Source: Giardia intestinalis
Lineage: Eukaryota
NCBI GenBank assembly: GCA_000002435.2
Contig: CM018792.1
DNA: 64,000 nucleotides
Strand: one strand, 5' to 3'
The notes below the pieces were generated by a model. The model saw only the letters and a list, made by a program, of their open reading frames with translations. It searched no databases and was not told the DNA's origin. The position numbers and the translations under genes were made by a program. Positions within the stretch are counted from its first letter, which is position 1, and each line of letters starts with the position of its first letter. Below are positions 1 through 25,279 of this stretch, one piece after another.

Positions 1-3000
1 TTGTGGGCCAGAGTAACCTTGTCTTGCAGTTCGTGACATAATGAGAAAATACAATGCTTCAGAAAGCGAGAGTGCAGCAGCGAGCCCGGAGATGTGTATA
101 TTTTCTCATAGACAGACACGTGGTCTAGCTTGTGGAACACACGTGCATATGATACTAGCAACTGGTTGTAGAGCTCTGTCAGACGGCGATTTAGTGGGTG
201 ATATGATGCCCTCTCGGGGTCGTATCGACGAATCGCGGAGATGGTAGCCCAGATAGCCGCGTATAGATTCTGGATTTTCTCTATAATCGCAGGGTGAACG
301 CGAAGACGAGTCCGGAGTGTATTTACCAAAGCCTGCATGTGCTCTGACTCTATCACTGCCTGAAACAAGAGGGCTGCTGCTGAGTCTAAAGTTGTATACG
401 TGTCAGATATGCGAATGTGAGGGCAATCTGGAGGGGGGCTCTGCGTGACAAAGAAGATGAGCAAACCTAGAAGAGTGCGGCTAGAAATTATCGGCAGCTT
501 GAGCGTACCTGCCTCTAAAGCCAAGGCCTTATCAGTGGAGTGTCTAGTGGCAAAGTGTATCTGCTGTATGCGAAACAGGGTGAAATAATGATGAATCTTT
601 TCGATTTTACCTATTGGAGCGTTAAAGACAACCAGCTCCGGCGCAAATGCAGCACAAAGATGGCCAATAAGCACTCTGGAAAGCGCTGGAGCAGAATAAG
701 AAGTTGGAATTAAGATTATCAACCCATGCTTAGGCCTTACCGGCTTGCTAATGAACAATTGGACCAACCATTCTACGCTCTTGTTCCCATCAGATAGAAC
801 TACAACAAGGTAGGAGAGCAAGTCGGCGTGAGTGGGCTTTGTTTTATAAACGACAGGAGCAGTCAGCAGAAGCTGATCAACTAGATATTCGAACGCAAAA
901 GAGATGAGTGTAAGAATGTCCAACGTGGAATCGAAGAAGATGGCGACTGTTTTGGATGCACACATAGGACACATCTCTTCTAACAAAGACTGCTTGGATG
1001 CATGAGAAAGTGGTTGCCCATTATCGCTGAAAAACATTCCATAGGATAACTTTTCAGATGGAGGAAAATCCTGTGACCAAAGCTGGCTGCGATAAAAAGC
1101 AGCAATGAATTTGCTGATGGATCCAGTGAGAGACTTTAAAGGACACTGCAAGAACTTAGAGAGGAGCTCGTCATCTCGGTCAGAGCTGAATACGTCAACT
1201 AGACTGAAGCTAGCGGAGTTCGTTAGCTTGCTTACCTTCATAAGAAGGTTGAGGTCCTCCTGCAAATGAGTTGGATTGAGACATATGCTTAAAAGAAAAG
1301 CTATCCACACGCCATTTGCTGAAGGTGACTGAATTGAAATAGGAAAATTACCCAGGGTCATATCATCTTTCAGTTCCATAATCAGCTCATCGGGGATTAA
1401 TCGCTCATAGACTGAGTCAGTATTGTTATGTAGCTGCATGGAATTTTCAAAATTAGCCGACTTTCCCTTATCTTGGTGCGTGGTTTTTACAGAGAAACCG
1501 GCGGTCTCTGCCCTCTTTAGCATGGCTGTCATAGATCTCCTTGACATGCTTATGTGCTTTCTTGCCTTAGTTGCTGTTTTGGCTTGTAAGCTTGGGTGCA
1601 TATTCTCACTGTCTGCATAATCATAATCAAACATAGCATCATAATCCTCGTCAGTGAGCGAAGCCACCGAACCTTCTGAACTAGTGTCATCATCTGAATT
1701 GATAGTCTTCTTATCCGTGACTTTGTATGAGTTATAGTCCCCTGGGTGCGTGTTGGCGATTGGCTCTTTTACAGGCACTGTTCCAGACCCATATACAGCT
1801 TTGTTAGAAGTACTGCTCCAAGCAGGAACGATCCCTGTCTCTGATGTGAAGCCTCCAAAGAGCTCAACGATGTTGTATTCATGCACGGCTGACTTAAGAA
1901 GTGCATGCGGCGCCAGGAAAGTTTCTGCAGAAAGCCTATTAGAGTGCTTGGAAGATCTCTCTACGTAGGCGTAGTGACCAAGCACCTTCCGGAAGAAACT
2001 CGAGCCCCGAACATATGTCAAATACTGCGTTTTCTGGGTAGAAAAGAAGGCCACCCACTCCTTCGCAAGATCTGGGGCAATGAAGACCAAGCTGCAGAGC
2101 TTGTTCCACCTTTCTATTGCAAGGCTATCTGCGGTGTTTGGCAAGAATGAGTCCATGGCCCGTCCGTTGTCTAGAAAGCCTACTGGCTTAGAAAGTGACT
2201 GATCGGTAACAATAGATGAGAAGAGCAGCATATGCTTCTGTACATTGCACTGTCCTGAAATAGATTCCAAGCATGAGATCATTCCCAGAAGCGACTTCAT
2301 ATATGCCTGCGGAACAATAGCGGATATCTTTGATAAGAGATGATGCACAATCGTGGGGAGCAACTCAGTCATGCGTCGTTCAGAGGTGTGCTTCGGAAGC
2401 AAGCGGCGATGGTGTAAGGCGGAGTGGTCCACTCCTTGTAGGTCTACGATCACGGACGTTACTAAAGAGAAGAAAAATGTATCTGTAAAGGCCACTGAAA
2501 GCGCCTCAAATCTCTCGGACAATTTCCAAAGAAGCTCGTAGACTGAGAGCAGGGTCCTGGCACGTGTTCTTATTCCTTGCTTGATAGATAGCGGTATAAT
2601 AGTAAAGTCAGTAAGCTTCTGAAGTTCTGCGTGTATGTGCTTGATGTATGCTAAGAACAGCTCGACATCAGTTAGTGTTACAGGATTCTGAGGTGCAGAG
2701 AGACCTTCGAGGTACCTATTGAACTCACTTAGGACGCCAACGATTTTATTTTTTCTCAGCAAGAATTGACTTATGCGAATGATTGGAAGATTCAAATGGA
2801 TTGCCTCATACGTAAAAATAATAGTAAGCTCTTCGATAATATAGTCATAAAGGACCGTTTGCCTGTGCCTTTGGAGCTTTTCAATTGCAGATAAGCCTAT
2901 TGCAGGAAAATTGGACTGCGGGGTCCCTTCAGAAGTTGACGTTTCCGATCCAACGTAGTACTGTAAGGTGGCTACGGGACTATGAAGTATATGGAGTCTG

Positions 3001-6000
3001 TGATTAAACTCCAAGAGATACAGCGATTCATAAGGATCTGCAAGAGATAGGTACATCCGGCGCATTCTGGGGTGGTATGCAAGGGTCGCCTGCACTGCGT
3101 CGTCGATGCTTAGCGACGCGTGAAATGGCTTGGTATCCCCAAATTCATCCGGCTGTGGCAGCGGAGAATTTACCAACGTAAGTAACGAGCGCAACAATCG
3201 TGCTAGGCTACGGTTATTATCTGTGCACGACGGGGCGAACATGTTATATAAGCATAACGGATGGTCTGCGGCGCCGGAGCAGGAGAGTGCCAGACGCAGT
3301 CGAGAGATAAACTCATCATGTTGCATACTACAATCTATGAACTCAAAGCTATATGCTCTCTTGATCTGGTCAGCAGACGCTGGGTGCTGCAAGTTCTTGG
3401 TCTCTTCAATGTGGCGGAGCGTCTCAGCCATGTACAGAACAGGAAGAAAGAGAGAACACGGGAGAACAGGTATCTTCTCCTGTCCCCTGCTGAAGAGCGT
3501 GTGACATAGAAAGCTGTGCACAGTGCTTTTACGAAACAGAAGGTAACGGGAGTACTCAATGGAAATCCTACCATTTAAAAGGTCTTGCGACATGCCAAAC
3601 CGCATCTCTAGAGCGAGGTCTGCGTACCGGAGAAGGAGTGGAAGGTTTATCTGAAACGTGTCTAAGGCCAACATTAACGAGCGCTCAATGCCAGCGGAGT
3701 CCATCTCAGTAACAAAGTGATTCATGAAGGATCTATTGCTCACTTCAGCAGGCTTTTGGCCCTTGTTTTGGAAGCCTTTATACTCCACAGCTCCTCCTTC
3801 GATATGAGCCAAATAACGATTCGCTTGGGTGCTGTACTCACTGGTAGTGATAGACTTGACAAGGTCTGCGTCTATAGCAGCATTCATAATAAGGACCTCA
3901 AGAGCGTTACTGTGTTGAAGGGTGGGAAGAAGCTGATGCTTAAATACAAGGCTACTGACCGCTATTACCGAATCAACAATAACCCTACGAACAATTGCCG
4001 CAAAGTCATCCATAATTTCGTTGATAATAGTCAAAATATCTTCGCTCTGTGTGGCTAGTACAATGTCGTTGAACTTGGTTGAGCTTCGACTCCTGTGAGA
4101 AATGCTTGTCAATTTAGATGAGAATCTTCCTAGGATACCCCGAGGTGTGATGGAATCATCTGCAGCTTCGGGAGAAATTAATGGTGCCTTGGCGTGCTGT
4201 TTAGACTCAAGCATAAGGGGGAGTAAGGAATTAGTATTACACGTACCTTCTGGTACTGCTGCAAGAATATTAGTCTTGCTTGGTCCTTGCATGCCAGGCC
4301 TGGATTGCATGTGCGCTTCGTCTGTAGCAGTAGCGCCCAGACACACCCTTTGAAATTTGCTCTTGAGTGCCTCTGAGCGAAGATTATTGGCCAGAGTATA
4401 TAGTGTTATTGCAAACCCACTATACATCCCCATGCGCAAATAACAAAAACGCCAAACATGCTCTGTGTATGCGCTAAACGTCAAGGTATAATTCAGAGTG
4501 CTGGTCTGGAGGTATTGGAGGCAGATTGCATAGCCTATCGTGCATGCAAGAATAAGCGTTCCTCTAAACTCGCCGAAAATGTCGGGTGGCAGCACAGAGT
4601 TTGATTCAGGTAGATAAAGAGTTTTCTTGCTTGTTACTGAAAAACACCTCAAAAGAGGCTCTGCAACAGAAGAGAACATGATGTTGAGGGACTTCTCCAG
4701 GTTATGGAAGTAGTTGGTCGTGAAGGAGACACTGGTAAAGCTGTCTGTTCCGCTCAAGCACGTTCCGTTCACGACATACTTTTGTATAGCCTGGTCACCA
4801 ATTGACGGGAGAATAGTAAGGCATTTCAAAATATCTAGGGAAATGGATACGGTGTCATTAAGGACCAAAATGCTGAAGTTTCTAGAGAGAAGCCACATTA
4901 GCTCCTGATCGCAGAGTAAGAAATCAAGCTCATAATAGCAGCTCACAAGTAGGCTGATGAACCGGAGCTCTTCCTCCAGAAAAACCGCAGTAAGTGTATG
5001 AGGAAGAGAAGCAATAGAACTAAGGATATCCAGCTTCCCAACGAGGAGATTACTATGCAGAACCAATAATATATCAACAGGCTCTGGAAGAAAGAAGTCT
5101 CGGATGGATGCTCTTCCTAGGTGCTTCTTCACAAGCGAAGAATCAATAGAATTCCACACACCCATGCCTGAGGATGTCTCTGTGTTGTAAAACTCATTTA
5201 TCCTCAGAAGAGAAAGATCCTTGAGCCCCAGAGATGGACTAAATCCCAAGGCCATCAGCAGGTAGGCTCTAACGATGTAGTATGTAAGCACAGAAACATC
5301 CTTAGACGTTTTATAGACACCAACGAGGTCTACGAGAAAATCCAATCTCAGCCCGGTTAGTGGAAGGGAAAACCCGTTAACCGGTTCTCGCTCGACACAG
5401 TATTTATTGACCTCCCTGAAAATGTAATAGTACGGGTCGCTTTTCGAAAGCTTGCCAGAGTAGGTCATGACTGGCTTTTCGGCCCTAAGGAATGGGCGAG
5501 AATCTGGAGTGAAGACGGACTTCTTTTTGAGAGTTCGTAGGATGCGCGGATTGGTCTGCGCAATAAAGTCGTCTTCATCAGACGAGTCTGAATAGTAAGA
5601 GCTCTTTATTGGCTTCAGAGATTTGCGTATAGACAACTCCACGTCTCCTATCTCTGCCTCAATTGCAAGGATCCCAACCAGGGTAATCAGCTGGTAGGAA
5701 TTGATGAGATATCGGTGGTATCTGGTAAAGAGAAGATGAATTGCGAAGTTCGTATACATTCCTTGATGAATGTTGAGCAAGGAGACACTGCAATCCTTGG
5801 GTTGCTTAGGCTTAGATTTAGTTGAGGTCGGAGCCATCGATCCTCGCTGCCCATCTTTTGGTATTCGCACAGTACCGTCGTGTGGAGAATAGTATAAGCC
5901 GGTGATGAAGCCCATGAAGTCCAGGGAATTGACAAGCTTGAAATTGCCCAGAAGGGCAATAAACTGGAGCATATGATGTGTGTCCTCTACATAATTGTGC

Positions 6001-9000
6001 AGATTGCTTAGCTGAAGGTAGGAGATAAGAATCTTAGGAGGATTATAGACTCGACTGAACTGATTAAATTGGGTCATGCCATTGGCTGGACCAAATCTGA
6101 GCGTAGATAGATACTCATATATTTTGATGCAGTTTCGATGCCACATTATCTCTGTGATGAGGTATGCACGGATAAGTATTATAGCTACATGGCTTGAAAG
6201 ATGTGTAACCTCACGGATATCTCTGTACTTGACCAGTAGGCGAACAATGGTGGTACTGGGGCGTTTATCTTCGAAGTCCTGGACTAGTTGATGTTGAGTG
6301 AGGTCCAAGTCATGACTCTGCTCTTGCTCCTGCTCTGATCGGTCTCTAGCTGTGCTAACGTTGTCATTCCTCAAAAAGCCTTGGGCATAGTCAGAATATG
6401 TGGCCCGAATAGCAGTATTAGCAGCTGAGGTAAGCTCGCCACGCCTTTCGAGAAGATCGGGTCTATGCTCAGATCTGTCGGTGCTTTCGAGTGTCATACT
6501 AGATGAGTCATCAGAGCTGGAATCGGAGTCGAAGAAGTCTAGCCCAGCCCTGGTGAGCATAGATGTAAGGTGGATGTCTTGGAACTTGGACATCTTGCTT
6601 AGCATGGTAAGTGCAGCGTTCTTCTTAGATTCAGCCCTCTCTCTTGGTTTCTCAGCAGCGCTGACAGCAGTAGGCAGCAGTGGCTCATGCTTCGGGCCGT
6701 CATCCACAGATAGCTCGTCAATCAGATCGCCGGTGAACTTCAGCACGTCAACGGAGTACGCCTTGTCTATGTTAAGAATCTTGTTGTATCGAAAGTCTTT
6801 TCGTGCACTTACTGGGATCCTTCGTTGTAGCTCAAATCTGTGACGAGTGAAGTAGTCTCCATTAAAGATCAAAACAGGGGCATGCCTTGAGTTAGGCGTT
6901 GAAACCTTAGAATCTCTGCTAGATACAGGCATGGAGAGGGCGCTATGGGATGGCCCATCCGGATCGATGACCGTTTTGAGACAAGTCTCCCACGAAAAGT
7001 GTAGCATTATACTTATGGTATCTGCTCTACCATTGTCGGAGTAACTGAAAGGGATAAGAAAGGGATACATGCGCTTAAATGCTTCTGCATACTCCGGAGT
7101 AAGGACGCTAAAAACAGATGTCGAAGAGAGAGTGCCAACGGAGAATGCAGACACTAACTCGGAATAGACCCGTGTAGACACGGATATAGGGACAGAACCA
7201 TGTCGAAGAAGCGCCGAGAAAAGACTATTTGCAGAGGGAACTAGCATATGTAGATTCTCTAGAAAACTGGATGGAGGATAGCCGAAAACGTTTCTTACGT
7301 CGGTATCATCAAAGTACACATTCTGCTTCATGCTGCACAAGAGCTCGAGAAGAGATATAGGGAGGAGAGGCCTTATTAGTAGTAACCCTTCGGCAAAGGA
7401 CTTGACGAGGGTACGTATTACGATAGACATGGGCGCATACTTAGTCAACTGGGGTCTGTGGTCGCTCTGAAGGGCATCTATGTTTCCTGCTATGGACTCG
7501 GCAGATAGCTTTGGAAAGCGCTTGATGCCTCTGGCTGCAAACACTCTTGCTGTTATGGGCTGGAAGACCTTCGGATAATGAAAGCGGGGGGAGACTGGCA
7601 AGAGTGCAGTAAGGGGGTCGTCTACATCATAGTGGATCGCATGGTAGTTGGCGACGCTCTTTTCCATCGAGCAGTAGGCATCTTGTATTAGGTGGTCGTA
7701 CACAAAGTTGCGATAGACCAGGCTGTGGAAGAATGTGGGCTTACTAGTCGCAGAGAACGTTGACACATATACAGACATGTCCATCAAGCGTCTTGCCGTC
7801 CTTTCTGTGCATGAGCTAGATACTTCATAGATCACCACAGAATCACGGAGGAATATGCGGCCGCAAAAGCCCCCAATGGCCTTTGAAACATCACGCTGTG
7901 AAATATCGACGTAAATGACATGCTCGAGGAGCGGAAGGCTTAGGAACTCCAATAGATTTGCGTGAGTAAGGCCTGAGATATGTAAGATATTAAATTTGCC
8001 ATTAACAGATTGTGCTGTGTATAGATTTCCTGCTCGAGAAATTTCTGGTCGAAGGAGATAGCTTTTTCTGAGTATTTGTACTTGCAAATCAGCAATGGTC
8101 TTGATAGTACTATTGCCCACGTAGAACGTTTGGAGGGACACCCTGTCGGAGCCTATCAGCGAAGCGGCAATCTGCAAAATAGTGGTTTTTCCGCTAAAGG
8201 AGTCCCCCAGAATAACAAAGGACTCTCCAGATAACATACATCCTGCGTAATAGACTGCGTACGCAGACATGTCATTGGTGATCACTAGCTGGAGAGAGTT
8301 CGACGTATCTGCGTAGCTATTCTGCATAGTTAGGAGGCTGGTGCTAACAAAGATCTCTTCCCCTACTCTATAGGGAACTTCTAATATAGGCATGTACCTT
8401 CTAATGAATGAAACCACGTACTTATCATCTTGTGAGCCAGTTTTTTCGGGCACTGAGTCTAACTGAAGATGCTTCAGCCTTCCCAAGCGCGCCCGTGATG
8501 TCGTCTTTGGCGTCCCAGCAGAAGCAAGGTTATCCCCTTCTAGTTGGTGAGGAGCAGATGAAATACGAGAACCTTTGGTAGGTAAACTTTGACACTCTAA
8601 AGATGTAAGAACCCTTGTTGAAACACGCTGAAGAGATTGCCCCGTGGATGTAGACGAAGCAACCTTCCGAAGCACTGCAGAAAAGTCAGTGCAGTCTGCG
8701 TTCAGTTCTGCTTTTTCTGGCAACAAAGAAGTGTTGTTAACAGGCCGAGAGATGTCTAGGCGTTGTGCTTGAGAATTGTTCTTGATCTTGTTGACTGATG
8801 ACGCTGACATTCCCGTGGGAATTGTCGATTGTGTTTCTTTCAATCTGCTGATTCTTAATTGGTCGGCTCTTTTGCTCAAACTTTCCATGCACTTCTTTCT
8901 ATATTGTGGCAGAGACACTTGCTCCAATTCATAGATAATCTCGGCTGTGAGCCCGAGCTTCTTTGCAATCGTCAACAAAAGCCTGTCCGACAAGTATGAC

Positions 9001-15000: not shown

Positions 15001-18000
15001 TTAAATGGAGAAATGAGCTCCAGACTATCCCGGATGCTTATGGAGGAGTGATCAGAAAAGCCTTTCCAGTCTTGGCTCAAGGTAGTTGGTTCATCAAATG
15101 TACATGCATGCTCTAAGCATTGATTCAGAAAGTAGGAAGCAAAGTGGTTAGAATTGAAAAGAAGCCGAATGGTGGAGAGAAATGAAAAATGCTGGATACC
15201 GTACAGAAGAAGTGAGACGACTAATAGGCGCAGTGTGGGTATCCATGTCCTATAGTTACATTCTAAGCGACAACACTCAAAGAGTGCGGTATTTTTAAAA
15301 CTATTAATCGTTTCTAATATTTTTGCAGAGATGATATCGGGCGAGTTATCCTTCAGTTTGATCACTGTTCGCACGTCCTTTTGCTTAACATATAGCGTTT
15401 GGAAGTACTTTATTTTGACGGGAAGCTTGATTACGTTCATGTGCATAGCAACATCCCGCAGTGACTGTAGGCCAGTGTTGGAAAGCAAGGTAAGCACTGG
15501 CGCATCGCGGATAGAGTTATCTAGAATAAACTGGCTGGCACGACTGGCGTTGGATATAGCCAATCTCGAGCCAGCTGCTATTGCAGAGACAACGCTAGTG
15601 ATCACAGTCTTCGCTGGAGCTCCATGAATGCTTGAAACGTTCGGTGGCGTATCTCCAACTGAGACGTGTTGATTGAATTGGCATTTAGCGGAGCGTACAG
15701 AGCGTGCAGTATCAATTGAAAAGCTATTTGCTGAAACTTCTCCAGCGGGCAACGGCAGTCCAAGTTGTGCGGTAGATATCTCAGAGGTGGTGTCACAGGC
15801 TGCTTGATCGTGGTCTTCGTGCAAGTTTTGGGCATGCTTAAGCAGTCTATCATCAAACGTGATAATCTGAGACGACTGGGACGGAGACGGTGGTGAAGTA
15901 GATTCTTTGTAAATAGAATCCCTAACCTTAGCAGCTGTTGGAGCAACTGATGAATCGATCATGGAGCCCGCTCCTTCAAGGTTTTCTTCCTGTACAACGG
16001 AAAGCTCCTGTTTGGCAGCTCGTGCTGTAAGTATAGATGGAAGCGATGAGGTTTTCGGTTTCTCCTTAGAACGCTGCGAGATTTGGAGCGTGCTCTGCTG
16101 CTTCAGTGTATATCCTGCCGAAATTTTTTCCCCATCAAGCAAGCTAAGAATAAACTTCATCCCTCTTGTTACGAAGGTATTGCTCTGTGTGTTCTTCTCA
16201 GAAATTAATACGGTGAGGTCATCCATACCTTTGGAAAGTAACTCTTCGTGACGGGGTGTATCAATGTTGGTCGTCAAGCCCTTAGGGGCATCGGCATCGA
16301 TACCATCAGTGGTAAAAATGGATGTTTCAAGGATTACTTGGTGTCTAGGATCATAGTCTTCATTGATTAAAAACTCTGCGGTGCTAGGTTCTATGAGTCT
16401 GTGGGCTGTGCTCTGATGATACGAATATTCCGAGTTGTATTGATCATGTCTGTCATTAAGGCTAGGTGCTGCATGGGCCAACATTGAAATGTTGCTACGC
16501 TCGGCCACATGCATCTTTCGGCTGCACAAAAAGATTGTGTCTATATATGTTAGGAAAAGTGACGGATTAAAAGCCGTCACTGGCTGATGCATTATTCGTG
16601 TGTAGGAGGCAAACATATCCACAATTGAAACGAGAAGTTGACAAGGGCTTTCAACCACTGAAAGAATGTCTCGAAAGCTTGGCTCCTCGATAGCCAAGGT
16701 GATCCCGAGAATCTCGCTCCATTGGGTTATTGCACCAAATATCTTAACAGTCTCCTTAACGAGAACATGTACCTCCGTGAAGATCGCATAGAGGTCATAG
16801 TACGGCGACGTATTACCTGTCTGCTTTTGGTCTGCAGACTGCTTCATTATAAGTGTGTTACCCGAGGCATGACTCATCTTTATCGTTCCCGATCTCGAGT
16901 CCTCGTCTAATTCATATATGCACTTTACCAGGAATCGAAAGAGCGACTCCAAATCGGTAATTAGTGGGTTGCTGCATAGATAGTCGTCTGTCGGCCGAGT
17001 ATAAAGAGTGATCATATGCCTCTGAAATGAACTGTGTCGCGTTATCGCCAAATTGGTGTGGCTTTGTACAAACTTTATGAATGCATAGGCGTCCTCCCCG
17101 TTTTGAGATTTAAAGTACTGTTCGAGTCTATTCAACACAATATTGCTCGTCAGGCGTGGATATTTTTCCTTGAACTCATGCGGTCGAGCCACAGAAGATA
17201 TCAGATCAGACGTTGTGAGCCGTGTTACTTCGTTCGCAAGGCCTATGCACAGTTGGCGCAAGTAGAGAAGATATTCTACACTGAGATAAATGAAATTAGA
17301 AAACGACTGGAGTCTCCGATCGATGTTTCTTTTGCAGGTGTTAATAAGTCGCCTGAAGTTGAGGATTTTTTCTATGAACGAAAGAATAAGATAATTATGC
17401 GCATATCCCCGAAGTTGCAGTTGAGAAAGCCTCATTGAAACAAGAATGGAGACCTTGGGCAGAGTTGCTTGACACTTAACTGCCTTTTCGAAGGGGAGCT
17501 TGGCAGGATCAATCTTGTTGCTTGCAACACGCTTCAGGTAGCGTGTCTTCCTTCGCTCATACTTACTACGATCCTTAGAGATCCTAGTCCAGAGCTGGAT
17601 GTCGAAGGCATGATCAAGCATCTGCTCAAACGTAATACGGTCCTCTGGAATAAATAGTAGATCTTTCTGGAGAAGATACCGGTGCACACTTAGGTCATGA
17701 AGCGAGTCCATGTCAGCAGCAGCGTGCTGATTGGTACGCTCGACTTCCGCTGGACTATCTTCTCTAGCTCCGTCTGTATGTACGGTGATGTCTTCCTTTT
17801 TATCAGCGGACCCTTCAGAATCTGAGTCGTCGCTTTGATGAATCGTCCCCTGTGATTCAGTCTGGACACCTGCCTTTAATTTGGCACTAACACCCAGATA
17901 CTCAAAGAGGCTTTGGACGTCTGTAATAGACGCAGTACTCTCAATGTAGGACAAGAGAGGTAGAAGATCTATGAGCATCTTGATCGCCGGGATCCAGCCA

Positions 18001-21000
18001 CATATGAACTTCTGGGCATCATCTAGGCCAGTGATGACCATATCCAAGTTATCCGGAGTGTCCATGTCGAGGCAGATCCTGTTCTCAAAGAAGGAAATGG
18101 TAGCAAAGGGTGTCTGTAAAACCTCACTGATTGTCTGGCGAACATGTTCACGAACGTGCTCGATTACAGCGATGAGCTTATTTATCAGTTGCTTCTTCAT
18201 TAGGGTGGTGTCATACATAATAAAATTGATATAGAATCGCGGATTGATTGGCAAGATTTCTTTTCTAATGTAATTTAGTATTCTATTAATTACTATAGTA
18301 GCGTTATCAACAATCACGTAAAGAAGGGAAGCCTCACGGTGCCGCTTTCTTATAGAATTCTTCTCTGATGAAGGCTTCCCCAGCCGTGGGAAAGGACAGT
18401 CAGATATGTGCGGCTCTTTGCTGGAACTCTGTTGTTGGGTGGTGGTAGCTAAGGACGCCGTCTCTGACCTGTCTGAGTGCTGTTCCTGTTCGCTATCCTG
18501 TTCTTCAACAGTACCAGGAATTGGAGTGGCAGCACTTGAGGAAGACTCCTTAGTAGGGTCACAAAGACCATATGAATTTAGATACTCGCCTGTAGTGAGT
18601 TGTACACTGAAGAGGGGGTTATTAAAGGTAAGTATTTCATCATGTAATATGTTAGTCATATCTGCCTGCTCTTCAACGACTAACTTGGCAGGACTCTGAT
18701 AAAGGAAGAGGGGTGGAGTAAATATAGACTCCGGTAACGAGTTATCTGTCTCCTGGGTGCTTGCATCATCCAGTAACCTCTTGAGCTGTTCGGCATCTTC
18801 GCTTGCAGTTAGATATCGATGTCGCAGGACATTATGCAATGCAATAGTGTGCAGTTTGTTCCGTTCTAGCTCTCTTGTGATGTTCTCTGAACATAGAAAG
18901 GCAGCTGAATAAATATTAGAAAGCAACTGGTCAAACTGCCGAAAAAACTGGCGATTGTAAGATATTATTAACAAATTTGACTTAGATCCCATTGAACTGG
19001 GCGGGCATCGGTATAGTATTTCCTTCAATGACGTGATATTGTTGAAGTTTTCTTCGAGGAGCTGCGCATAGCTGAGTCGAAGCCTCTTCCGTTCCTCAAA
19101 ATAGGCTAGCTCAAAGTCCGAATAACGTGATGCTATGATATCTTCCAGGTACACCTCTCGCTGAAGACGATCCTGAAATGTCTTGGGCTTAATAATATTG
19201 AAGGAGGTTAGATCTTGTTGTATGAGCTCAAGCTCCTTATGAACCAGTTGTTTGCAGTATCGCTTAAGTGGCGGTAGCTCAGAGTAGCCTTTCACGATGC
19301 TTTTAGATAAGAAAATCAAATTGGTAGTGAGGTGGTACTCGAGATCAGTATTAAGTCGATGTAAGGAGTGCACTAAATTGGTGACGACAGTCCGGATCAT
19401 AGTAACTTGGGCAACGCAATCCACTGTGAATCCAACTACCAGATTAGCCAGCCCATTAAGATCTTCTCTGCGCTGGTAGGGCTTGAACACATCTGGCTTT
19501 CGAAAACATACGAAGTCCAGCTTAACAAGTGGCTTATGAGGCAGTTTAATAGTAGAAACATTCTGAGTCGTTATTGCTGCTTCTATGGAGCTGGTGGATC
19601 GCAATTGATTCATAGATTCTTCGGTTGCATAGGCATACTCTGCACGGCACAACTCCAAGAGGTTCTCCTGAATCATATCTAGGTCTTCAGAGAATGTACG
19701 CTGTAGAAAGAGAACGACCTGATAGTTAAATATCTCGTAGGCAAGAACTGGGTTTTCTTCCAAGCGTCTATTACTCTCTTGTATCTTGTTTAAGTTGAAG
19801 TCCCTAAAGAATAGCGCAGAAATAAGCGGGACAACATCGGTGATGAAGAGTGCAAAGAGCTTGCTGTACAAAAATGCGTACCTTAATGTGTCAGAGTACT
19901 GATCACTATCGAGAGGAAGATCATAGTAGAAATCAGCGTGCGCCGAACCAGTAGACTGCTCAAGAATGCTCTTCACAATACTCTTTTGGGCCTCCTTAAC
20001 AATAGCCACATTGGCATGCTCATCTTTCAATTGTAGGGCAGGCTTACTCTCGTCGTCGTCATCATCAGATATCACATCCAGATTGTGATAAACATGAGGT
20101 GGCTCAAGATGTATTCGCTGAGAAATGTACTTTTCGACATATATATGGGGAGATTTTAGCGTACGGCGTCTCAACATGGGAAGAATTAAGGGATCTAACA
20201 AGAAGTCAACTGTGCGAGGAAAAGCGGAGAACTCCTTTAGCAAGGATTGGGTCTCCGATGATTCACGCTTGATCACCTCATAGATCTGTCGCTTTACAGA
20301 GACGAAGTTATACCCAAGCTCTCTATACCTTAGCTCCAGTTCTGCGAACAACTCATTGTATTGTCGTAAAAGAATCCGTGACGAGGAAAACGCATCTAAT
20401 AGCCCTGCAATAGAGAGATTGATTGGTGCACAAAACCTTGATAGAAGTTGAAGAAACGTGTTTGACAGCTTTATAAACTTTGACGAATACCTGGGAAGAT
20501 CCAATAGAACAGTGTGCTGAGCTATGAATGGCCTTTTGCTGAGAGAAATTGCTGATTTGGAATAGAACGAAAAGGTGGTAGATCCACGTGCCCGTCGACT
20601 AACCATCGAGTGGAAGATCCGCCTGGTCTCACGAGAGTACAGAATAATACCATACCGTAAACAATCATTGTAGAGCGCATGCAACTCTACACTAATAGAA
20701 GTTGAGTCTGCACATGGGAGGTTTGGTGGTGTGCTATTTGCAAAATAAGAGCTGGTAGTATTGGTACCATTGTTCTGGTCTTCACCGTCTGGTAACAAAT
20801 CGCTTAATCCCTTCAAAATCAACGCAATCTTTTGAAGATCACAGGATTTGCGAGGTGCAAGCACACGCGTTTCTTCATTGACATCGTCAATTGTGCAGAG
20901 ACGCATCAGCGTATAGCTCACTGCTTGAGAATAGAAAACAGAGTAGTCAGAGATAATGCCCTCTAGCGCAGCTGGTAACACAGGACACAATAAAAGAAGT

Positions 21001-21965
21001 AGGCCATGTGCCTCTGTGCTATAAAGATCACCAGTAAGAAGAAGGGACTTCTGCTCAGTAGTGAGTTGGGACGATAGAGGGGTAGAGAGAAGTGAACGAA
21101 GGACTGCCCTATTGTCTCTAAGAAAGAGCCAAATTGTTTTTGGGTTAATCAGTAGGGAGGTCGATCGTTCAACATCTTTTTTAGCTCGTTCGAAGTCAGC
21201 TAATGATGGCGAAAGATCCAAGCTAAAGTGCTGACTCTGCACCTGAAGTTGCGATTTGACGTAGTCATTAGAAAATAAGTGAAGGTTGAAGAGGAGGCAT
21301 ACCGAATTAATAACCAAGCGCCGTATGTGTGTATGTAACGTATGCTCCAGATATGTGACCCGCTTGTCCTCGTTGACAAAGCGATCAGAGGAGGAACGGT
21401 TTCTAAGAGTTAGTAAGGTATCTGCAGTGGTAATAACAAGAAAGTTATCAATCAGGTAGCGAGCAGATTGTTCGTATGAGGAGTATATCCCATTATTATA
21501 GAGATTGTAAGAGAAGCGTGCGTCCTTATCATCCTGGAGGCTACCGTAGCAGTCTAAATGTATAAGTTGCAGATTAACCTCATGGAATGACCTGGTGCAC
21601 GCATCCCAATCTGTAGAATCTCTGCCAGTGGACAAGGCTACCAAAGCATAGTTCCTTGCAACATCTATTGCTAGGAGGCGGATGGGAACAAGGGTGAATT
21701 GATTATATTCATAAAATGCAGGATGGCCACGAAGAGCTGGATTGTCAATTGAAGATTGAACAACACGAATTGTAATAGTAGTAAGACTGAGGGTAGGTGC
21801 GCTCTCCTGGAGCTCTGCATAAGACCGAGTAATATTCTTTAATGAAAGAGATGGAGATGCAGGGGAGGTTTGTGTTGGAGACGCGCGATGAAGGGTCGAA
21901 GGCTCCCGCTGGCCTATATGCAATAACTTGCAAAAGACTATGGGAATTCGAAAGCTGACACTCAT
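1..21965 (-). CDS. Giant protein, 3'-partial (at least 7,321 codons inside the window); highly divergent dynein-heavy-chain-like AAA+ protein
   Basis: Absent from the supplied track because it has no stop codon in the window. The ATG is at 21965..21963, with an in-frame TAG 23 codons upstream (22035..22037). Every minus-strand track ORF between 248 and 21,933 lies in one of the other two registers. A manual reverse translation from 21965 to position 3 met no stop. Spot checks of plus-strand triplets starting at coordinates divisible by 3 (lines 1-300, 10021, 15001, 18001, 21001) found no TTA/CTA/TCA. The translation looks protein-like throughout, with acidic/Ser-rich patches near 20,050, 6,500, 5,580 and 1,650. 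Confidence 0.8.
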   Translation of the reverse strand, partial: MSVSFRIPIVFCKLLHIGQREPSTLHRASPTQTSPASPSLSLKNITRSYAELQESAPTLSLTTITIRVVQSSIDNPALRGHPAFYEYNQFTLVPIRLLAIDVARNYALVALSTGRDSTDWDACTRSFHEVNLQLIHLDCYGSLQDDKDARFSYNLYNNGIYSSYEQSARYLIDNFLVITTADTLLTLRNRSSSDRFVNEDKRVTYLEHTLHTHIRRLVINSVCLLFNLHLFSNDYVKSQLQVQSQHFSLDLSPSLADFERAKKDVERSTSLLINPKTIWLFLRDNRAVLRSLLSTPLSSQLTTEQKSLLLTGDLYSTEAHGLLLLLCPVLPAALEGIISDYSVFYSQAVSYTLMRLCTIDDVNEETRVLAPRKSCDLQKIALILKGLSDLLPDGEDQNNGTNTTSSYFANSTPPNLPCADSTSISVELHALYNDCLRYGIILYSRETRRIFHSMVSRRARGSTTFSFYSKSAISLSKRPFIAQHTVLLDLPRYSSKFIKLSNTFLQLLSRFCAPINLSIAGLLDAFSSSRILLRQYNELFAELELRYRELGYNFVSVKRQIYEVIKRESSETQSLLKEFSAFPRTVDFLLDPLILPMLRRRTLKSPHIYVEKYISQRIHLEPPHVYHNLDVISDDDDDESKPALQLKDEHANVAIVKEAQKSIVKSILEQSTGSAHADFYYDLPLDSDQYSDTLRYAFLYSKLFALFITDVVPLISALFFRDFNLNKIQESNRRLEENPVLAYEIFNYQVVLFLQRTFSEDLDMIQENLLELCRAEYAYATEESMNQLRSTSSIEAAITTQNVSTIKLPHKPLVKLDFVCFRKPDVFKPYQRREDLNGLANLVVGFTVDCVAQVTMIRTVVTNLVHSLHRLNTDLEYHLTTNLIFLSKSIVKGYSELPPLKRYCKQLVHKELELIQQDLTSFNIIKPKTFQDRLQREVYLEDIIASRYSDFELAYFEERKRLRLSYAQLLEENFNNITSLKEILYRCPPSSMGSKSNLLIISYNRQFFRQFDQLLSNIYSAAFLCSENITRELERNKLHTIALHNVLRHRYLTASEDAEQLKRLLDDASTQETDNSLPESIFTPPLFLYQSPAKLVVEEQADMTNILHDEILTFNNPLFSVQLTTGEYLNSYGLCDPTKESSSSAATPIPGTVEEQDSEQEQHSDRSETASLATTTQQQSSSKEPHISDCPFPRLGKPSSEKNSIRKRHREASLLYVIVDNATIVINRILNYIRKEILPINPRFYINFIMYDTTLMKKQLINKLIAVIEHVREHVRQTISEVLQTPFATISFFENRICLDMDTPDNLDMVITGLDDAQKFICGWIPAIKMLIDLLPLLSYIESTASITDVQSLFEYLGVSAKLKAGVQTESQGTIHQSDDSDSEGSADKKEDITVHTDGAREDSPAEVERTNQHAAADMDSLHDLSVHRYLLQKDLLFIPEDRITFEQMLDHAFDIQLWTRISKDRSKYERRKTRYLKRVASNKIDPAKLPFEKAVKCQATLPKVSILVSMRLSQLQLRGYAHNYLILSFIEKILNFRRLINTCKRNIDRRLQSFSNFIYLSVEYLLYLRQLCIGLANEVTRLTTSDLISSVARPHEFKEKYPRLTSNIVLNRLEQYFKSQNGEDAYAFIKFVQSHTNLAITRHSSFQRHMITLYTRPTDDYLCSNPLITDLESLFRFLVKCIYELDEDSRSGTIKMSHASGNTLIMKQSADQKQTGNTSPYYDLYAIFTEVHVLVKETVKIFGAITQWSEILGITLAIEEPSFRDILSVVESPCQLLVSIVDMFASYTRIMHQPVTAFNPSLFLTYIDTIFLCSRKMHVAERSNISMLAHAAPSLNDRHDQYNSEYSYHQSTAHRLIEPSTAEFLINEDYDPRHQVILETSIFTTDGIDADAPKGLTTNIDTPRHEELLSKGMDDLTVLISEKNTQSNTFVTRGMKFILSLLDGEKISAGYTLKQQSTLQISQRSKEKPKTSSLPSILTARAAKQELSVVQEENLEGAGSMIDSSVAPTAAKVRDSIYKESTSPPSPSQSSQIITFDDRLLKHAQNLHEDHDQAACDTTSEISTAQLGLPLPAGEVSANSFSIDTARSVRSAKCQFNQHVSVGDTPPNVSSIHGAPAKTVITSVVSAIAAGSRLAISNASRASQFILDNSIRDAPVLTLLSNTGLQSLRDVAMHMNVIKLPVKIKYFQTLYVKQKDVRTVIKLKDNSPDIISAKILETINSFKNTALFECCRLECNYRTWIPTLRLLVVSLLLYGIQHFSFLSTIRLLFNSNHFASYFLNQCLEHACTFDEPTTLSQDWKGFSDHSSISIRDSLELISPFNHQLASQINKQYLLNYSAENRLLEIYYWLHNIDIFITYYTINLHLNDEIARVLGDLDFTFGEHNADAAEAIKTEISDSNSLVPVVQKSGILLPRRTVGVTEVIEDATAPGSETKSDLAEAFKDQHRHCTDSSDEDAFDLFETPFGRIAGCTNRKTTLPLLKPRIKALTIIAPQPSIASRDDDASLSHQPGNSTLSSQTPIKETNDTTKQARAKSILISRDQRHVQSKVLLGNQRTRAPLIRKRRSYDGPARITLPFFNTHPYLLKALREGIFIVTAILADKGVIPKVAKMARIIEDKLIFCRNFVIAIGNVRKLLPELIALTNAIYDGIADLTLLKLSPNDVKKVTIEILSCLKHICIFAKSKHEVVWKLNSMGQQNVHEHESVYTLPFISFLDNLNLLDRRRCGTRLSVPKFYTDESPNPNCFQFMNLFARDILAKVQSFMTNVLAAEELLSRCRRNLSSHPVVTTIYANQQYRICAPYARLPLSFAVLYSQLTTVPLTGVLTDALFNSVFSPLIVDTDESSVEDGFEDEPPRDMTDVKHGPQLSYSLLSNLIDSTGNFFGIFKGHENIFYQTIIKANARVKDCYLFTEGSLHSQHIVHNYRKAALLFLNERYREALLFCTYQAIVYALSCIVYLYCDGRSESFIYCYENVICSMIRILEEETYDLIRGTGKLRAQGSFQVGSTFSATSSRILMLKALYARLLEHKETLDIMALTVVQHVIARNILPPERIPSLTDQFDARLCWDILLLYGRNRGLVLSGLEHGVSLSIATNRQTSALVYSLASDTLLGNGANRRVDLPMLDLTYTAEEKTLIKNAKARLQARTESVSLLTSNSDAPEGTEPRDTKGNDNVAFDDFAALTMELFRTPESLSKLNQATVSTANLDDKMAYATPVSSIALNCDTNITDFRMPTAPLSETLVNIVLSGQLISISSSYFNPANEYDSMYISHTMRLKAARLISALRSKSVALLLTDWARGYFALEVYYLAHLVARYLSSHVLFIPITDASFLPQYNRLRELLISRYLVILYGVDTLTKEHLEMLSTTFATTTLSYGFEDFSSYSISSETRLEFNPYSRSSRSYSSQGWIPIDSDIDHSFCRLIIWLAGAMPQECSVTTTMTSSPSSHSQRSSSGPHIVDEHYIYQVHPHAERVTQKFRKAYMMYLPFIPYISTLQSTHEFRTTQLVCASASLVDQTTFTKNFSAYKSIVLEVYMEHVESLKHQIVVRADKNLGDSCCTISPFQRLFRSLPGLYQDSFYHLHVFLSNLSNDFPKLLGLDFMLIQHRLAPDANRTAACTQTFVYLVSCMYLATEESFCLVDDINSDLLQSDGATHEEVKSEAPHAAINLQHKLSILISCLISVFGLSPANATTFEHSGSRVTSDSMAYMIRRSSSPKYLESLHGLQRSAGILSEFGAYMATVMMDLLAAKEPFAILTTSMAQQFFEYVHAILSRASALTFLLAYSSADIHFYADLLSAFPNRYALAIVLDQHSDLLLYQNILGMLAARQTIYSENNKTYTFKAPVHVIIVARARDARILQLSIRKFSLSRNLHLSDIGFYFMSFGNLSQLNISHLISIQAPTLASISSYDKLMQYIYANFDADYHIYTSSFLTRTKLGLYISYFNFLVFNFVMFISTEIGAHLTLTLRHWRIIKALIHLFFRYYGILDVQTGNDSHRPTLSTEEELSTDTMNLYHELSIRSYTDAKNPISFKQQKDLREASTKPLEFNINDALGSHFSYFSEPISLAHSFADLRGESLQSNPGAHNLNHRSVSFETAYSTMLNQTSAQFTQSFISRLLLTSNSRHIADILHYSVISTVFSAFMLLYRMEYINGGLLFNSLSYYRLYASLLSYIPTFSLTLESEFFEQHVFYRKDGFRLSKWMHLFCDNAIMSLQDLYVSQTYFFTNAETYPTFSALFAKRHAESLNPKVAHSTGSSTGSSTLSRGPNYCETYANVSDMGAAARGEASVEAFSVPDDQFAAKPEKTVSDSNFKSMWGGSTYSFIAITSYLSDRLLLTIAKKLGLTAEIIYELEQVSLPQYRKKCMESLSKRADQLRISRLKETQSTIPTGMSASSVNKIKNNSQAQRLDISRPVNNTSLLPEKAELNADCTDFSAVLRKVASSTSTGQSLQRVSTRVLTSLECQSLPTKGSRISSAPHQLEGDNLASAGTPKTTSRARLGRLKHLQLDSVPEKTGSQDDKYVVSFIRRYMPILEVPYRVGEEIFVSTSLLTMQNSYADTSNSLQLVITNDMSAYAVYYAGCMLSGESFVILGDSFSGKTTILQIAASLIGSDRVSLQTFYVGNSTIKTIADLQVQILRKSYLLRPEISRAGNLYTAQSVNGKFNILHISGLTHANLLEFLSLPLLEHVIYVDISQRDVSKAIGGFCGRIFLRDSVVIYEVSSSCTERTARRLMDMSVYVSTFSATSKPTFFHSLVYRNFVYDHLIQDAYCSMEKSVANYHAIHYDVDDPLTALLPVSPRFHYPKVFQPITARVFAARGIKRFPKLSAESIAGNIDALQSDHRPQLTKYAPMSIVIRTLVKSFAEGLLLIRPLLPISLLELLCSMKQNVYFDDTDVRNVFGYPPSSFLENLHMLVPSANSLFSALLRHGSVPISVSTRVYSELVSAFSVGTLSSTSVFSVLTPEYAEAFKRMYPFLIPFSYSDNGRADTISIMLHFSWETCLKTVIDPDGPSHSALSMPVSSRDSKVSTPNSRHAPVLIFNGDYFTRHRFELQRRIPVSARKDFRYNKILNIDKAYSVDVLKFTGDLIDELSVDDGPKHEPLLPTAVSAAEKPRERAESKKNAALTMLSKMSKFQDIHLTSMLTRAGLDFFDSDSSSDDSSSMTLESTDRSEHRPDLLERRGELTSAANTAIRATYSDYAQGFLRNDNVSTARDRSEQEQEQSHDLDLTQHQLVQDFEDKRPSTTIVRLLVKYRDIREVTHLSSHVAIILIRAYLITEIMWHRNCIKIYEYLSTLRFGPANGMTQFNQFSRVYNPPKILISYLQLSNLHNYVEDTHHMLQFIALLGNFKLVNSLDFMGFITGLYYSPHDGTVRIPKDGQRGSMAPTSTKSKPKQPKDCSVSLLNIHQGMYTNFAIHLLFTRYHRYLINSYQLITLVGILAIEAEIGDVELSIRKSLKPIKSSYYSDSSDEDDFIAQTNPRILRTLKKKSVFTPDSRPFLRAEKPVMTYSGKLSKSDPYYYIFREVNKYCVEREPVNGFSLPLTGLRLDFLVDLVGVYKTSKDVSVLTYYIVRAYLLMALGFSPSLGLKDLSLLRINEFYNTETSSGMGVWNSIDSSLVKKHLGRASIRDFFLPEPVDILLVLHSNLLVGKLDILSSIASLPHTLTAVFLEEELRFISLLVSCYYELDFLLCDQELMWLLSRNFSILVLNDTVSISLDILKCLTILPSIGDQAIQKYVVNGTCLSGTDSFTSVSFTTNYFHNLEKSLNIMFSSVAEPLLRCFSVTSKKTLYLPESNSVLPPDIFGEFRGTLILACTIGYAICLQYLQTSTLNYTLTFSAYTEHVWRFCYLRMGMYSGFAITLYTLANNLRSEALKSKFQRVCLGATATDEAHMQSRPGMQGPSKTNILAAVPEGTCNTNSLLPLMLESKQHAKAPLISPEAADDSITPRGILGRFSSKLTSISHRSRSSTKFNDIVLATQSEDILTIINEIMDDFAAIVRRVIVDSVIAVSSLVFKHQLLPTLQHSNALEVLIMNAAIDADLVKSITTSEYSTQANRYLAHIEGGAVEYKGFQNKGQKPAEVSNRSFMNHFVTEMDSAGIERSLMLALDTFQINLPLLLRYADLALEMRFGMSQDLLNGRISIEYSRYLLFRKSTVHSFLCHTLFSRGQEKIPVLPCSLFLPVLYMAETLRHIEETKNLQHPASADQIKRAYSFEFIDCSMQHDEFISRLRLALSCSGAADHPLCLYNMFAPSCTDNNRSLARLLRSLLTLVNSPLPQPDEFGDTKPFHASLSIDDAVQATLAYHPRMRRMYLSLADPYESLYLLEFNHRLHILHSPVATLQYYVGSETSTSEGTPQSNFPAIGLSAIEKLQRHRQTVLYDYIIEELTIIFTYEAIHLNLPIIRISQFLLRKNKIVGVLSEFNRYLEGLSAPQNPVTLTDVELFLAYIKHIHAELQKLTDFTIIPLSIKQGIRTRARTLLSVYELLWKLSERFEALSVAFTDTFFFSLVTSVIVDLQGVDHSALHHRRLLPKHTSERRMTELLPTIVHHLLSKISAIVPQAYMKSLLGMISCLESISGQCNVQKHMLLFSSIVTDQSLSKPVGFLDNGRAMDSFLPNTADSLAIERWNKLCSLVFIAPDLAKEWVAFFSTQKTQYLTYVRGSSFFRKVLGHYAYVERSSKHSNRLSAETFLAPHALLKSAVHEYNIVELFGGFTSETGIVPAWSSTSNKAVYGSGTVPVKEPIANTHPGDYNSYKVTDKKTINSDDDTSSEGSVASLTDEDYDAMFDYDYADSENMHPSLQAKTATKARKHISMSRRSMTAMLKRAETAGFSVKTTHQDKGKSANFENSMQLHNNTDSVYERLIPDELIMELKDDMTLGNFPISIQSPSANGVWIAFLLSICLNPTHLQEDLNLLMKVSKLTNSASFSLVDVFSSDRDDELLSKFLQCPLKSLTGSISKFIAAFYRSQLWSQDFPPSEKLSYGMFFSDNGQPLSHASKQSLLEEMCPMCASKTVAIFFDSTLDILTLISFAFEYLVDQLLLTAPVVYKTKPTHADLLSYLVVVLSDGNKSVEWLVQLFISKPVRPKHGLIILIPTSYSAPALSRVLIGHLCAAFAPELVVFNAPIGKIEKIHHYFTLFRIQQIHFATRHSTDKALALEAGTLKLPIISSRTLLGLLIFFVTQSPPPDCPHIRISDTYTTLDSAAALLFQAVIESEHMQALVNTLRTRLRVHPAIIEKIQNLYAAIWATISAIRRYDPERASYHPLNRRLTELYNQLLVSYARVFHKLDHVSVYEKIYTSPGSLLHSRFLKHCIFSLCHELQDKVTLAH
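8184..8288 (-). other. Dynein AAA1-type signature inside the giant ORF: LVIT (8277..8288), 23 residues, then Walker A GDSFSGKT (8184..8207)
   Basis: The careful reverse complement of 8101-8340 translates as SLLTMQNSYADTSNSLQLVITNDMSAYAVYYAGCMLSGESFVILGDSFSGKTTILQIAASLIGSDRVSLQTFYVGNSTI. As I remember it, the canonical dynein heavy chain AAA1 reads RLVITPLTDRCYxTLxxALxLxLGGAPxGPAGTGKTETxKDLAKALG. That places LVIT and GxxxxGKT exactly 23 residues apart, as here. Confidence 0.6.
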
Positions 21966-22103
21966 TAGGAAAACTTTACGCCCTGAGTGACTGAAATATA
22001 TGCTCAAACAGGATAGGGACAGGACACGAGCTGACTAGTCCAGGACGCGATGCAAAGGTCTTAAAAAAATCTCCGCTTCAGGTAGCTCGACTTGTGTACG
22101 TCC
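21966..22103. promoter_or_regulatory. 138 bp divergent intergenic region shared by the giant gene (-) and the 234 aa gene (+)
   Basis: This is the only sequence between two divergently oriented ATGs (21965 on the minus strand, 22104 on the plus strand). It contains an A-run (aaaaaaatct, about 22063-22072). Giardia-type promoters are short and lie immediately upstream of the ATG. Confidence 0.4.
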
Positions 22104-22808
22104 ATGGCGATACGCGAACTGGAGCTGTTTCTAAATCACTCTTTGACAGACGAGATTCGATCGCAGCTCATAACCAAGGTCACAGAGATGCTCACCATGC
22201 CCGAGCTCGTCCACTTCCGTTGCTCACTACAGTCAGACTATGGTATTGCTGCACCTATAGGTCTCTACGACATTCTTCGGAGGATTCCCCTGTTTGCTGA
22301 CCATGCCTTTATGACCATCGGAGAGGTCTTTAGTGGCCTTTTTGCTGTAGCAGACTCCTTTCATGAGGTCATTACAGAGATTCAACCGTCTCTCGAGCAA
22401 TACGAAGGCCATATTTTGTGGCTCCTAACAGACACTTATAGTAGCCTCATGCACCAATCCCGTAGCTTCAAAGATTTGGGGATTCCCGTGAAGCGGATTA
22501 AGATGATTCTCAAAACAGCTTATAAGTTTACCCCAGCGCTTCCCAAGACCATTCATGACTTGGATGCCGATACAATGTCCCAGGTTCCGTCCCATGATGA
22601 GCTTAACAAACTACGCGAATACGTTGACCAGCTCCCTAACGCACAAGCCCGAGCGTTAGTGTTTGGTAAACTCTTAAGAGAGATAGGGAGGCGCCCCGAG
22701 GAAATAATCCTCAATGGGAACCAATTAAATCTAGAACTCACTGACCTGCCCTCCTTCGCATTCTGGGTCCTACTGGATGCTGCACAAGCGTATGCAACTC
22801 CATCATAG
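22104..22808 (+). CDS. Hypothetical protein, 234 aa (MAIRELELFLNHSL...), with a possible C-terminal NET/ET-like helical domain
   Basis: The track ORF 22092..22808 starts at a TTG. The first ATG is at 22104. This is the longest ORF in the interval and no competing ORF of similar size overlaps it. The C-terminus SHDELNKLREYVDQLPNAQARALVFGKLLREIG...QLNLELTDLP loosely follows the BET extra-terminal pattern (LP...hydrophobic helix...EIEID-like strand). That match is tentative. Confidence 0.6.
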   Translation: MAIRELELFLNHSLTDEIRSQLITKVTEMLTMPELVHFRCSLQSDYGIAAPIGLYDILRRIPLFADHAFMTIGEVFSGLFAVADSFHEVITEIQPSLEQYEGHILWLLTDTYSSLMHQSRSFKDLGIPVKRIKMILKTAYKFTPALPKTIHDLDADTMSQVPSHDELNKLREYVDQLPNAQARALVFGKLLREIGRRPEEIILNGNQLNLELTDLPSFAFWVLLDAAQAYATPS

Positions 22809-24790: not shown

Positions 24791-25279
24791 TCTGTCCCCC
24801 GCAGCACAGAAGCATGCTCAGGGCCCTGAGGGACCGAGTCCAGGGGTGCAGCGTGGCGCAATTAGAGGAAGGCCTCGATGTAGTTCTCAGGATGAAGGGT
24901 ACACTCGCCTGGCCGAGGCCGTCTGCTGTTGGGGCTCTCGTTATGTCGAGCGAGGCCGCTGTGTTCCGTCAATCTGCATCTCCATGTATGCCATGCGGAC
25001 ACCACCCATGTGCGTTCAGGTGGAGTGCATCTGCTCGGTCTCTAGAAAGGCCAGTGTCTGGGTCTCCAGGGGGCTCAGCAGTATCTGTGAAACACAGCCA
25101 TGATCGTCCACTGATTGTGCTTGTCCTGTCTCATCATTGGGAAGAGGGTAGAACAAGAGTTCTTCCGCTCTCCAGACCTGGTTGACATCTGATCTTCGGG
25201 CTCTGGACGTGGATCTCAGGCGATGTATGGACAGGAGGTACCCGCTTGCCTAAGGCGGTGGCTCGCATGAGGGGATCAT
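24791..25279. repeat. Left arm of an apparently perfect 489 bp inverted repeat (partner 29912..30400)
   Basis: Position p on the left pairs with 55191-p on the right. Blocks 24841-24900, 25081-25160 and 25161-25279 were checked base by base against the reverse complement of the right arm and are identical. The track ORFs 24846..25103(+) and 30088..30345(-) have identical 85 aa translations. ORFs 24751..25185(+) and 30006..30434(-) are identical apart from their first residues. Confidence 0.9.

Follow-up and report, generated by a model that had tools for sequence, protein, structure and literature searches.

A single-exon Giardia gene of 7,838 codons, cut by the window edge, encodes a giant protein with one P-loop motif and a similarly large paralogue

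The window analysed here, a 64,000-nucleotide stretch of the Giardia intestinalis genome (contig CM018792.1 of assembly GCA_000002435.2), begins with about 22 kb in which the accompanying list of open reading frames (ORFs) has only short entries, and one very long minus-strand frame had been proposed to run through all of it. This raises the question of whether the frame is a gene and, if so, what kind of protein it encodes. Translating the reverse complement of positions 1-21965, we found that the frame is open from an ATG at 21963-21965 down to position 3, giving the 7,321 stop-free codons of the original prediction, and that no TTA, CTA or TCA starts on the plus strand at a coordinate divisible by 3 in the range 3-21,963. 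The five other frames of the same region contain 296-560 stops apiece, and at the local base composition 7,321 codons would lack a stop by chance with a probability of ~1e-165. The nearest in-frame stop 5' of the ATG is at 22035-22037; therefore, the giant frame can be extended upstream by at most 23 codons. In the mechanical ORF list for positions 1-22100, the ORFs inside the giant frame are all short (≤147 residues), and the ends previously given for the minus-strand ones (3574, 5959, 10633, 13927, 15946 and 21933) match the list exactly. The list omits, by design, any ORF crossing either end of the window, and the giant ORF is absent from it because its stop sits 1.55 kb past the left edge. 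The same cause had been suggested for the omission, in agreement with how the ORF lister is described.

A protein search with residues 2322-7321 of the translation, followed by a comparison, identified the window ORF as residues 1-7321 of GL50803_0035487 (old ID GL50803_35487) at 100% identity. This protein of Giardia duodenalis WB (assemblage A) has 7,838 residues and carries the NCBI name 'hypothetical protein'. The DNA of an independent assembly (locus L002) is identical across all 21,965 bases, and the complete gene is a single exon of 23,517 nt with 7,838 codons and a stop. The stop had been expected to the left of the window, at the end of a single very long gene, and it is found there, 517 codons further on. 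The open frame is, with near certainty, the 5' part of a genuine and already annotated single-exon gene (Table 1). The description of the ORF as missing holds for the ORF track of the window but not for the biology, in which nothing is missing since the gene is publicly annotated; the gene itself is already known, and its apparent absence is an artefact of the track. The suggestion that it would be among the largest genes is plausible, as judged only by comparison with the other complete ORFs of the window, all of which have ≤1,984 residues.

Four Giardia lineages carry the gene uninterrupted and at its full length. The orthologues in assemblage E (GLP15_2708), assemblage B (GL50581_234, ESU44786.1) and one further lineage represented by SRA assemblies only have 7,850, 7,808 and 7,866 residues and are 84, 70 and 68% identical to the WB protein, respectively. 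All orthologous loci have common flanks, with a divergent 234-residue gene upstream and a VSP-like gene, an LRR gene and Mpp10 downstream. By the Nei-Gojobori method, the ratio of nonsynonymous to synonymous substitution rates (dN/dS) against the three orthologues is 0.13, 0.11 and 0.07, and against assemblage E it stays at 0.10-0.18 in every one of eight 1,000-codon slices. The low ratio everywhere shows that purifying selection acts on the entire gene, no portion of which resembles a spacer or a fused pseudogene. Two side observations concern these loci. The VSP-like gene lies directly 3' of the giant gene's stop, just past the window edge (L002:24926-26338). The orthologue from the further lineage (P0004; L006, Logan SRR17450160) is on a contig with a GC content of just 38% and has a dS of ~3 from WB; its protein identity to WB is as low as that of assemblage B, yet the lineage is clearly separate.

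A long frame could also arise by chance or as an artefact, with an assembly chimera or several fused genes posing as one. The giant ORF has no Pfam domain matches and a GC content below that of the adjoining genes, and both facts speak for this possibility. Against it stand the minute probability of the frame, the identical 7,838-residue product in independent assemblies from many samples (six contigs, one of them in at least 20 samples), the retention of the full frame in the three other lineages despite a dS of 0.6 to >1.6, the evenly low dN/dS across all slices, and the same collinear architecture in a paralogue. With this weight of evidence on the other side, we regard chance or artefact as a negligible alternative. 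The frame stays open in diverged relatives, its dN/dS is far below 1 throughout, and the giant ORF is a genuine protein-coding gene.

The paralogue is a second giant protein of 7,616-7,678 residues (P0005, 7,616; ESU45201.1, 7,678), whose gene lies outside the window at L001:10001-32851 of an assemblage B contig. P0005 was the fifth hit of the protein search, at ~25% identity. The P0005 cluster includes ESU45201.1 of assemblage B, and the genes flanking P0005 are also those of assemblage B. P0005 is a paralogue because it shares a genome with the true assemblage B orthologue. The alternative that P0005 is an orthologue from a distant species is ruled out, since the cluster and the flanks belong to assemblage B, where the true orthologue also resides. 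BLASTP between the two giant proteins gives nine collinear high-scoring segment pairs across residues 486-7172 at 20-30% identity, and a global alignment gives ~28% identity with ~15% indels. The conservation is distributed over the full length, with short blocks peaking at 40-54% identity. The two proteins are similar in length and collinear, and both have an invariant TYSGKLS and a lone Walker A in the corresponding place; they differ in that the paralogue sits at a separate locus with other neighbours. The genome thus holds, besides the giant gene, one ancient paralogue that is collinear with it and of comparable length.

The gene order at the paralogue locus is NIF, an 88-residue gene, two hypotheticals, the giant gene and a 162-residue gene. 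In WB, the corresponding succession is GL50803_14905, 9219, 14906, 23694, 137689 and 5593 (RPL11) in a supplement table arranged by chromosomal position, and we infer from gene order, not from sequence, that GL50803_137689 is the WB copy of the paralogue. GL50803_137689 is expressed at log2 ~8.5-9.7 and was likewise detected by mass spectrometry in an anti-actin pull-down study (PMC8552679).

Leu and Ser account for 12.5% and 10.8% of the giant protein, and ~25 polar, indel-prone linkers separate its conserved blocks. Neither internal repeats nor a repeat of the P-loop module were detected in the protein, and no 19-residue window in its 7,838 residues has a Kyte-Doolittle mean >2.0, the level used for transmembrane segments. 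By these measures the protein is soluble and non-repetitive. In a first AlphaFold2 (AF2) model, the pLDDT exceeded 50 only at residues 5461-5520, the stretch that holds TYSGKLS. We also noticed that the base composition of the gene is distinctive: the GC content is 0.43-0.47 in the giant gene (window positions 1-22000) and mostly 0.48-0.59 in 22001-64000, the plus-strand GC skew is steadily positive over the giant gene (+0.06 to +0.14), indicating a C-rich coding strand, and the orthologous loci share the GC deficit, as does the paralogue.

The only feature that could be recognised in the protein is its Walker A P-loop, which each of the four orthologues and the paralogue has exactly once and in the same column of the alignment, with FSGKTT invariant. 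It lies in a predicted nucleoside triphosphatase (NTPase) domain whose alpha/beta core has a pLDDT of 63-82 in a separate AF2 model. A conserved Walker B of the form hhhhD[DE] is absent across the entire protein alignment. The predicted strand at the AAA+-type position lacks Asp-Glu, and the invariant Tyr-Glu of VVIYE is a candidate degenerate Walker B of the ABC type; this Tyr-Glu is 120 residues past the Walker A Lys, and the Walker B offset in 80 ABC nucleotide-binding domains (NBDs) is 97-129. The paralogue differs from the orthologues here: its Q-loop-like position is Gln, and it reads EGID in place of their SGLT. Some 290 residues past Walker A, a separate block is conserved with the paralogue, 'QN..(h)(h)DD....N..G' (residues 4879-4890; window 7295-7330, minus strand). 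This block comes closest to an acidic Walker-B-like motif, but of the four preceding columns just two are hydrophobic. A split head of the SMC/Rad50 type, with a distant Walker B or signature, was also considered and is ruled out because neither hhhhD[DE] nor SGG is conserved anywhere in the protein.

We compared the domain with an ABC reference profile built from the 80 ABC NBDs and a dynein reference built from 120 real AAA1 fragments. With hhalign, the profile of residues 4480-4800 matched the ABC NBD profile with a probability of 96.5% and a P value of 7e-10 over just 37 columns around Walker A. The same profile matched dynein AAA1 with a P value of 0.011, and a dynein-versus-ABC control scored better (9.5e-6). 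The ABC hidden Markov model (HMM) matched the P-loop site in all five proteins (hmmsearch E values 2.6e-5 to 0.011); the dynein AAA1 HMM, run with filters off, matched none of the five. In a profile search of the whole PDB, 27 of 28 weak matches (E 0.1-3) were ABC domains and none was AAA+. The resemblance to ABC NBDs lies in the extended Walker A, 'sGE-hhhh-G-xx-sGKTT-hL', which in the giant protein is preceded by a 'GE' strand (SGESFVILGDSFSGKTT), and in the compatible spacing of downstream motif-like positions: 'ILR/QK' at +40 from the Walker A Lys, 'ISQ' at +96, 'VVIYE' at +120 and, in the orthologues only, a His at +154 are all inside the ranges of the ABC set.

In contrast to these spacings, the residues that define ABC NBDs are largely missing. 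The giant protein has only 'ISQ' where the signature LSGGQ is expected, with no conserved SGG anywhere; the Asp of Walker B hhhhDE is replaced by the Tyr of VVIYE; the Q-loop Gln is R or K in the giant-gene orthologues and Q only in the paralogue; and the H-loop His at +154 is absent from the paralogue. Pfam ABC_tran (PF00005) does not match the giant protein, whereas the true ABC transporter in the window scores 177 bits. In addition, the predicted fold is not ABC-like and there is no membrane domain. Walker A alone among the ABC features is present, and the giant protein does not belong to the ABC family. The GS_B orthologue bears the name 'ABC transporter ATP-binding protein', apparently given automatically, which agrees with an ABC reading without being a test of it. 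That the protein is an ABC transporter, or any transporter, is ruled out with certainty by the absence of any segment of transmembrane strength in its 7,838 residues. The P-loop may instead be a degenerate ABC-type NBD in a giant soluble protein, forming an ATP-dependent dimerisation clamp of the ABC/SMC type with ATP sandwiched against the paralogue's domain or a second copy. The profile matches and spacings would fit such a clamp and the missing signature, Walker B and fold would not, and we consider it unlikely.

A second alternative starts from the AAA+ side. Both giant proteins could be extremely diverged mechanoenzymes of the dynein/midasin branch, in which the P-loop would be AAA1-like, the 3,245 residues past the Walker A Lys would form a degenerate AAA ring, and the proteins may replace cytoplasmic dynein-1, which Giardia has been reported to lack (PMC5100056). 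None of the dynein heavy chain families in Pfam (DHC_N2, AAA_6/PF12774, AAA_7-9, Dynein_C and others) matches the giant protein, and the Pfam, HMM and profile-profile tests gave zero sequence-level similarity to dynein or midasin. Dynein and midasin have four to six P-loops, whereas the giant protein has one, lacks a Walker B and is almost twice as long. Instead of the Walker B Asp-Glu of dynein AAA1, it reads HIS/HIE after predicted strand 3. In a crude test for a dynein stalk, the longest Pro/Gly-free stretch downstream of the P-loop was ≤67 residues and such stretches were 19-22% charged. As far as this crude test can tell, no stalk-like long charged helix lies downstream. The single P-loop and the lack of a detectable module repeat argue against the dynein/midasin reading, which we hold to be improbable. 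On the features examined, the giant protein does not belong to the dynein family. More specifically, GL50803_35487 and GL50803_137689 might form a Giardia-specific pair of giant dynein/midasin-related AAA+ machines that act jointly on the cytoskeleton and partly replace cytoplasmic dynein-1; this is more improbable still. For the class of the P-loop NTPase domain, an AAA+-like topology is our leading assignment at somewhat short of an even chance, an ABC-like one follows as a serious candidate, and some other class is the least likely.

Published data sets contain both expression values and peptides for the gene. The RNA-seq level of GL50803_35487 is log2 ~7.1-8.4, similar to that of neighbouring genes, as gene-level values in the supplements of PMC8866875, which give its length as 7839. 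An anti-actin pull-down yielded 4 spectral counts for GL50803_35487 in one replicate (PMC8552679 supplement). Going by these gene-level values and few peptides, the gene is transcribed and yields peptides. Two further published supplements have no entry for the gene, and the main texts of the searchable literature do not mention GL50803_35487, GLP15_2708 or GL50803_137689. Nor, as far as this literature shows, has anyone described the paralogue, the profile of selection over the whole length or the conflict over the class of the P-loop; these results add modestly to what is known.

From these observations, we suspect that the giant protein might be a lineage-specific, largely helical scaffold organised about one P-loop domain, which lies ~60% of the way along the chain and binds nucleotide. 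The domain would take up ATP or GTP with slow or no hydrolysis, so that the nucleotide would serve as a switch or a structural element and not drive a fast processive motor. This suggestion comes from the Walker A Lys and Thr, which are invariant across paralogues of ~28% identity, together with the lack of a catalytic Asp-Glu, a combination that points to nucleotide binding with slow or no hydrolysis. The nucleotide state may then gate how the giant protein folds into its conformation or assembles, on the cytoskeleton or on other large structures of the cell. A large multi-domain scaffold gated at the P-loop would fit the uniform constraint over ~7,800 residues and the absence of both repeats and a membrane anchor. 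The giant protein possibly pairs with its paralogue, and two co-expressed paralogues of identical architecture suggest a heteromeric pair. Taken as a whole, this mechanistic sketch of a P-loop-gated giant scaffold or switch is possible but doubtful.

Several points weigh against the gated scaffold. The sequence evidence and the fold evidence disagree on the class of the P-loop domain, the putative helical scaffold is drawn from composition and low-confidence secondary structure, and the pairing with the paralogue is purely inferred. The 4 actin pull-down spectra come from one replicate, and GL50803_35487 was not called an actin interactor by the authors (PMC8552679); the presence of both paralogues in that pull-down is too weak for assigning a partner. 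Pfam searches of the whole protein at E thresholds up to 1-10 gave no family match except the sub-threshold P-loop, and four profile tiles of ~1,150 residues searched against all PDB sequences gave nothing significant, with no match below E 0.06. A HMMER profile of residues 4401-5550 searched against 1.8 billion representatives returned Giardia only, a negative weakened by an incomplete library, since P0005 was in the query alignment yet was not returned. A metagenome scan for relatives of the giant protein also found nothing. With no relative found outside Giardia in these searches, a function is not assignable by homology.

As the result of a scan the gene carries little weight, having been publicly annotated ever since the WB genome. 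For the method, the locus shows that a track restricted to complete ORFs hides any gene crossing a window edge, which here amounts to one third of the window. The biological interest lies in the pair: ~47 kb of a 'minimal' 12-Mb genome is devoted to two expressed, strongly constrained paralogues of ~7,600-7,800 residues with one recognisable motif only and no detectable relatives. Learning the role of the giant pair could reveal a part of the cell's architecture that is peculiar to the Giardia lineage, and a target specific to the parasite.

Beyond the giant gene, the window contains two VSP-domain genes, several ankyrin 'protein 21.1'/NEK-type proteins, IFT140, an FKBP and an ABC transporter, a set of neighbours characteristic of Giardia (selected genes in Table 1). 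The YchF/OLA1-type ORF has no G-domain or P-loop in any minus-strand frame upstream to 31146 and may be a truncated or split gene. The ORF with the weak reverse-transcriptase match is probably the retroelement remnant that is annotated as GL50803_10122.

Table 1 Features of the giant gene and of other genes in the window (aa, amino acid residues of the giant protein; P0001, GL50803_0035487)
Feature	Position	Strand	Evidence or remark
Codons 1-7321 of GL50803_0035487, the 5' 21,963 nt (93%) of the gene	3..21965	-	No stop; 100% identity to P0001 and L002; 517 codons and stop left of the window
ATG start	21963..21965	-	Annotated start of P0001; M1 invariant in the five-sequence alignment (orthologues and paralogue)
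Second-best conserved block with the paralogue, aa 882-966, 45% identity	19068..19322	-	Sliding identity, P0001 vs P0005
Block best conserved with the paralogue, aa 2929-2982, 54% identity	13020..13181	-	Sliding identity, P0001 vs P0005
Predicted alpha/beta P-loop NTPase domain, AAA+-like or ABC-like, aa 4512-4900	7266..8432	-	
Walker A P-loop GDSFSGKT, aa 4587-4594	8184..8207	-	Sole [GA]xxxxGK[ST] motif in the protein
Stretch aligning with ABC NBD, Walker A to Q-loop, aa 4579-4656	7998..8231	-	ABC HMM; ABCG5 and BceA at E 0.1-0.2 in the PDB search
Predicted strand KFNILHISGL at the AAA+-type Walker B position, without Asp-Glu, aa 4657-4666	7968..7997	-	Strand E146-155 of the AF2 model; paralogue KILIIHIEGI
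Invariant Tyr-Glu at the end of strand VVIYE, candidate degenerate ABC-type Walker B, aa 4713-4714	7824..7829	-	Y and E invariant in all five sequences
Invariant TYSGKLS, aa 5501-5507	5445..5465	-	Orthologues and paralogue; GKLS resembles a degenerate P-loop (GK[ST])
Neighbour of ~234 residues, divergent orientation, no Pfam domain, probably GL50803_15120	22092..22808	+	ORF list; counterpart in L002-L006; gene order in PMC8866875 supplement
186-residue ORF, weak reverse-transcriptase match	24255-24815	-	PF00078, E 1.5e-5, below gathering score
224-residue ORF, only the C-terminal domain of a YchF/OLA1-type GTPase	29209-29883	-	PF06071, E 1e-35
Complete VSP gene	31147-33021	-	Head to head with 33944-36322; the pair lies ~9-12 kb from the giant gene
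VSP-domain high-cysteine protein	33944-36322	+	Head to head with the VSP gene at 31147-33021
720-residue ORF, typical Giardia 'hypothetical protein'	37524-39686	+	No above-threshold Pfam domain
634-residue ORF, typical Giardia 'hypothetical protein'	39698-41602	-	No above-threshold Pfam domain
1,675-residue ORF, typical Giardia 'hypothetical protein'	42805-47832	-	No above-threshold Pfam domain

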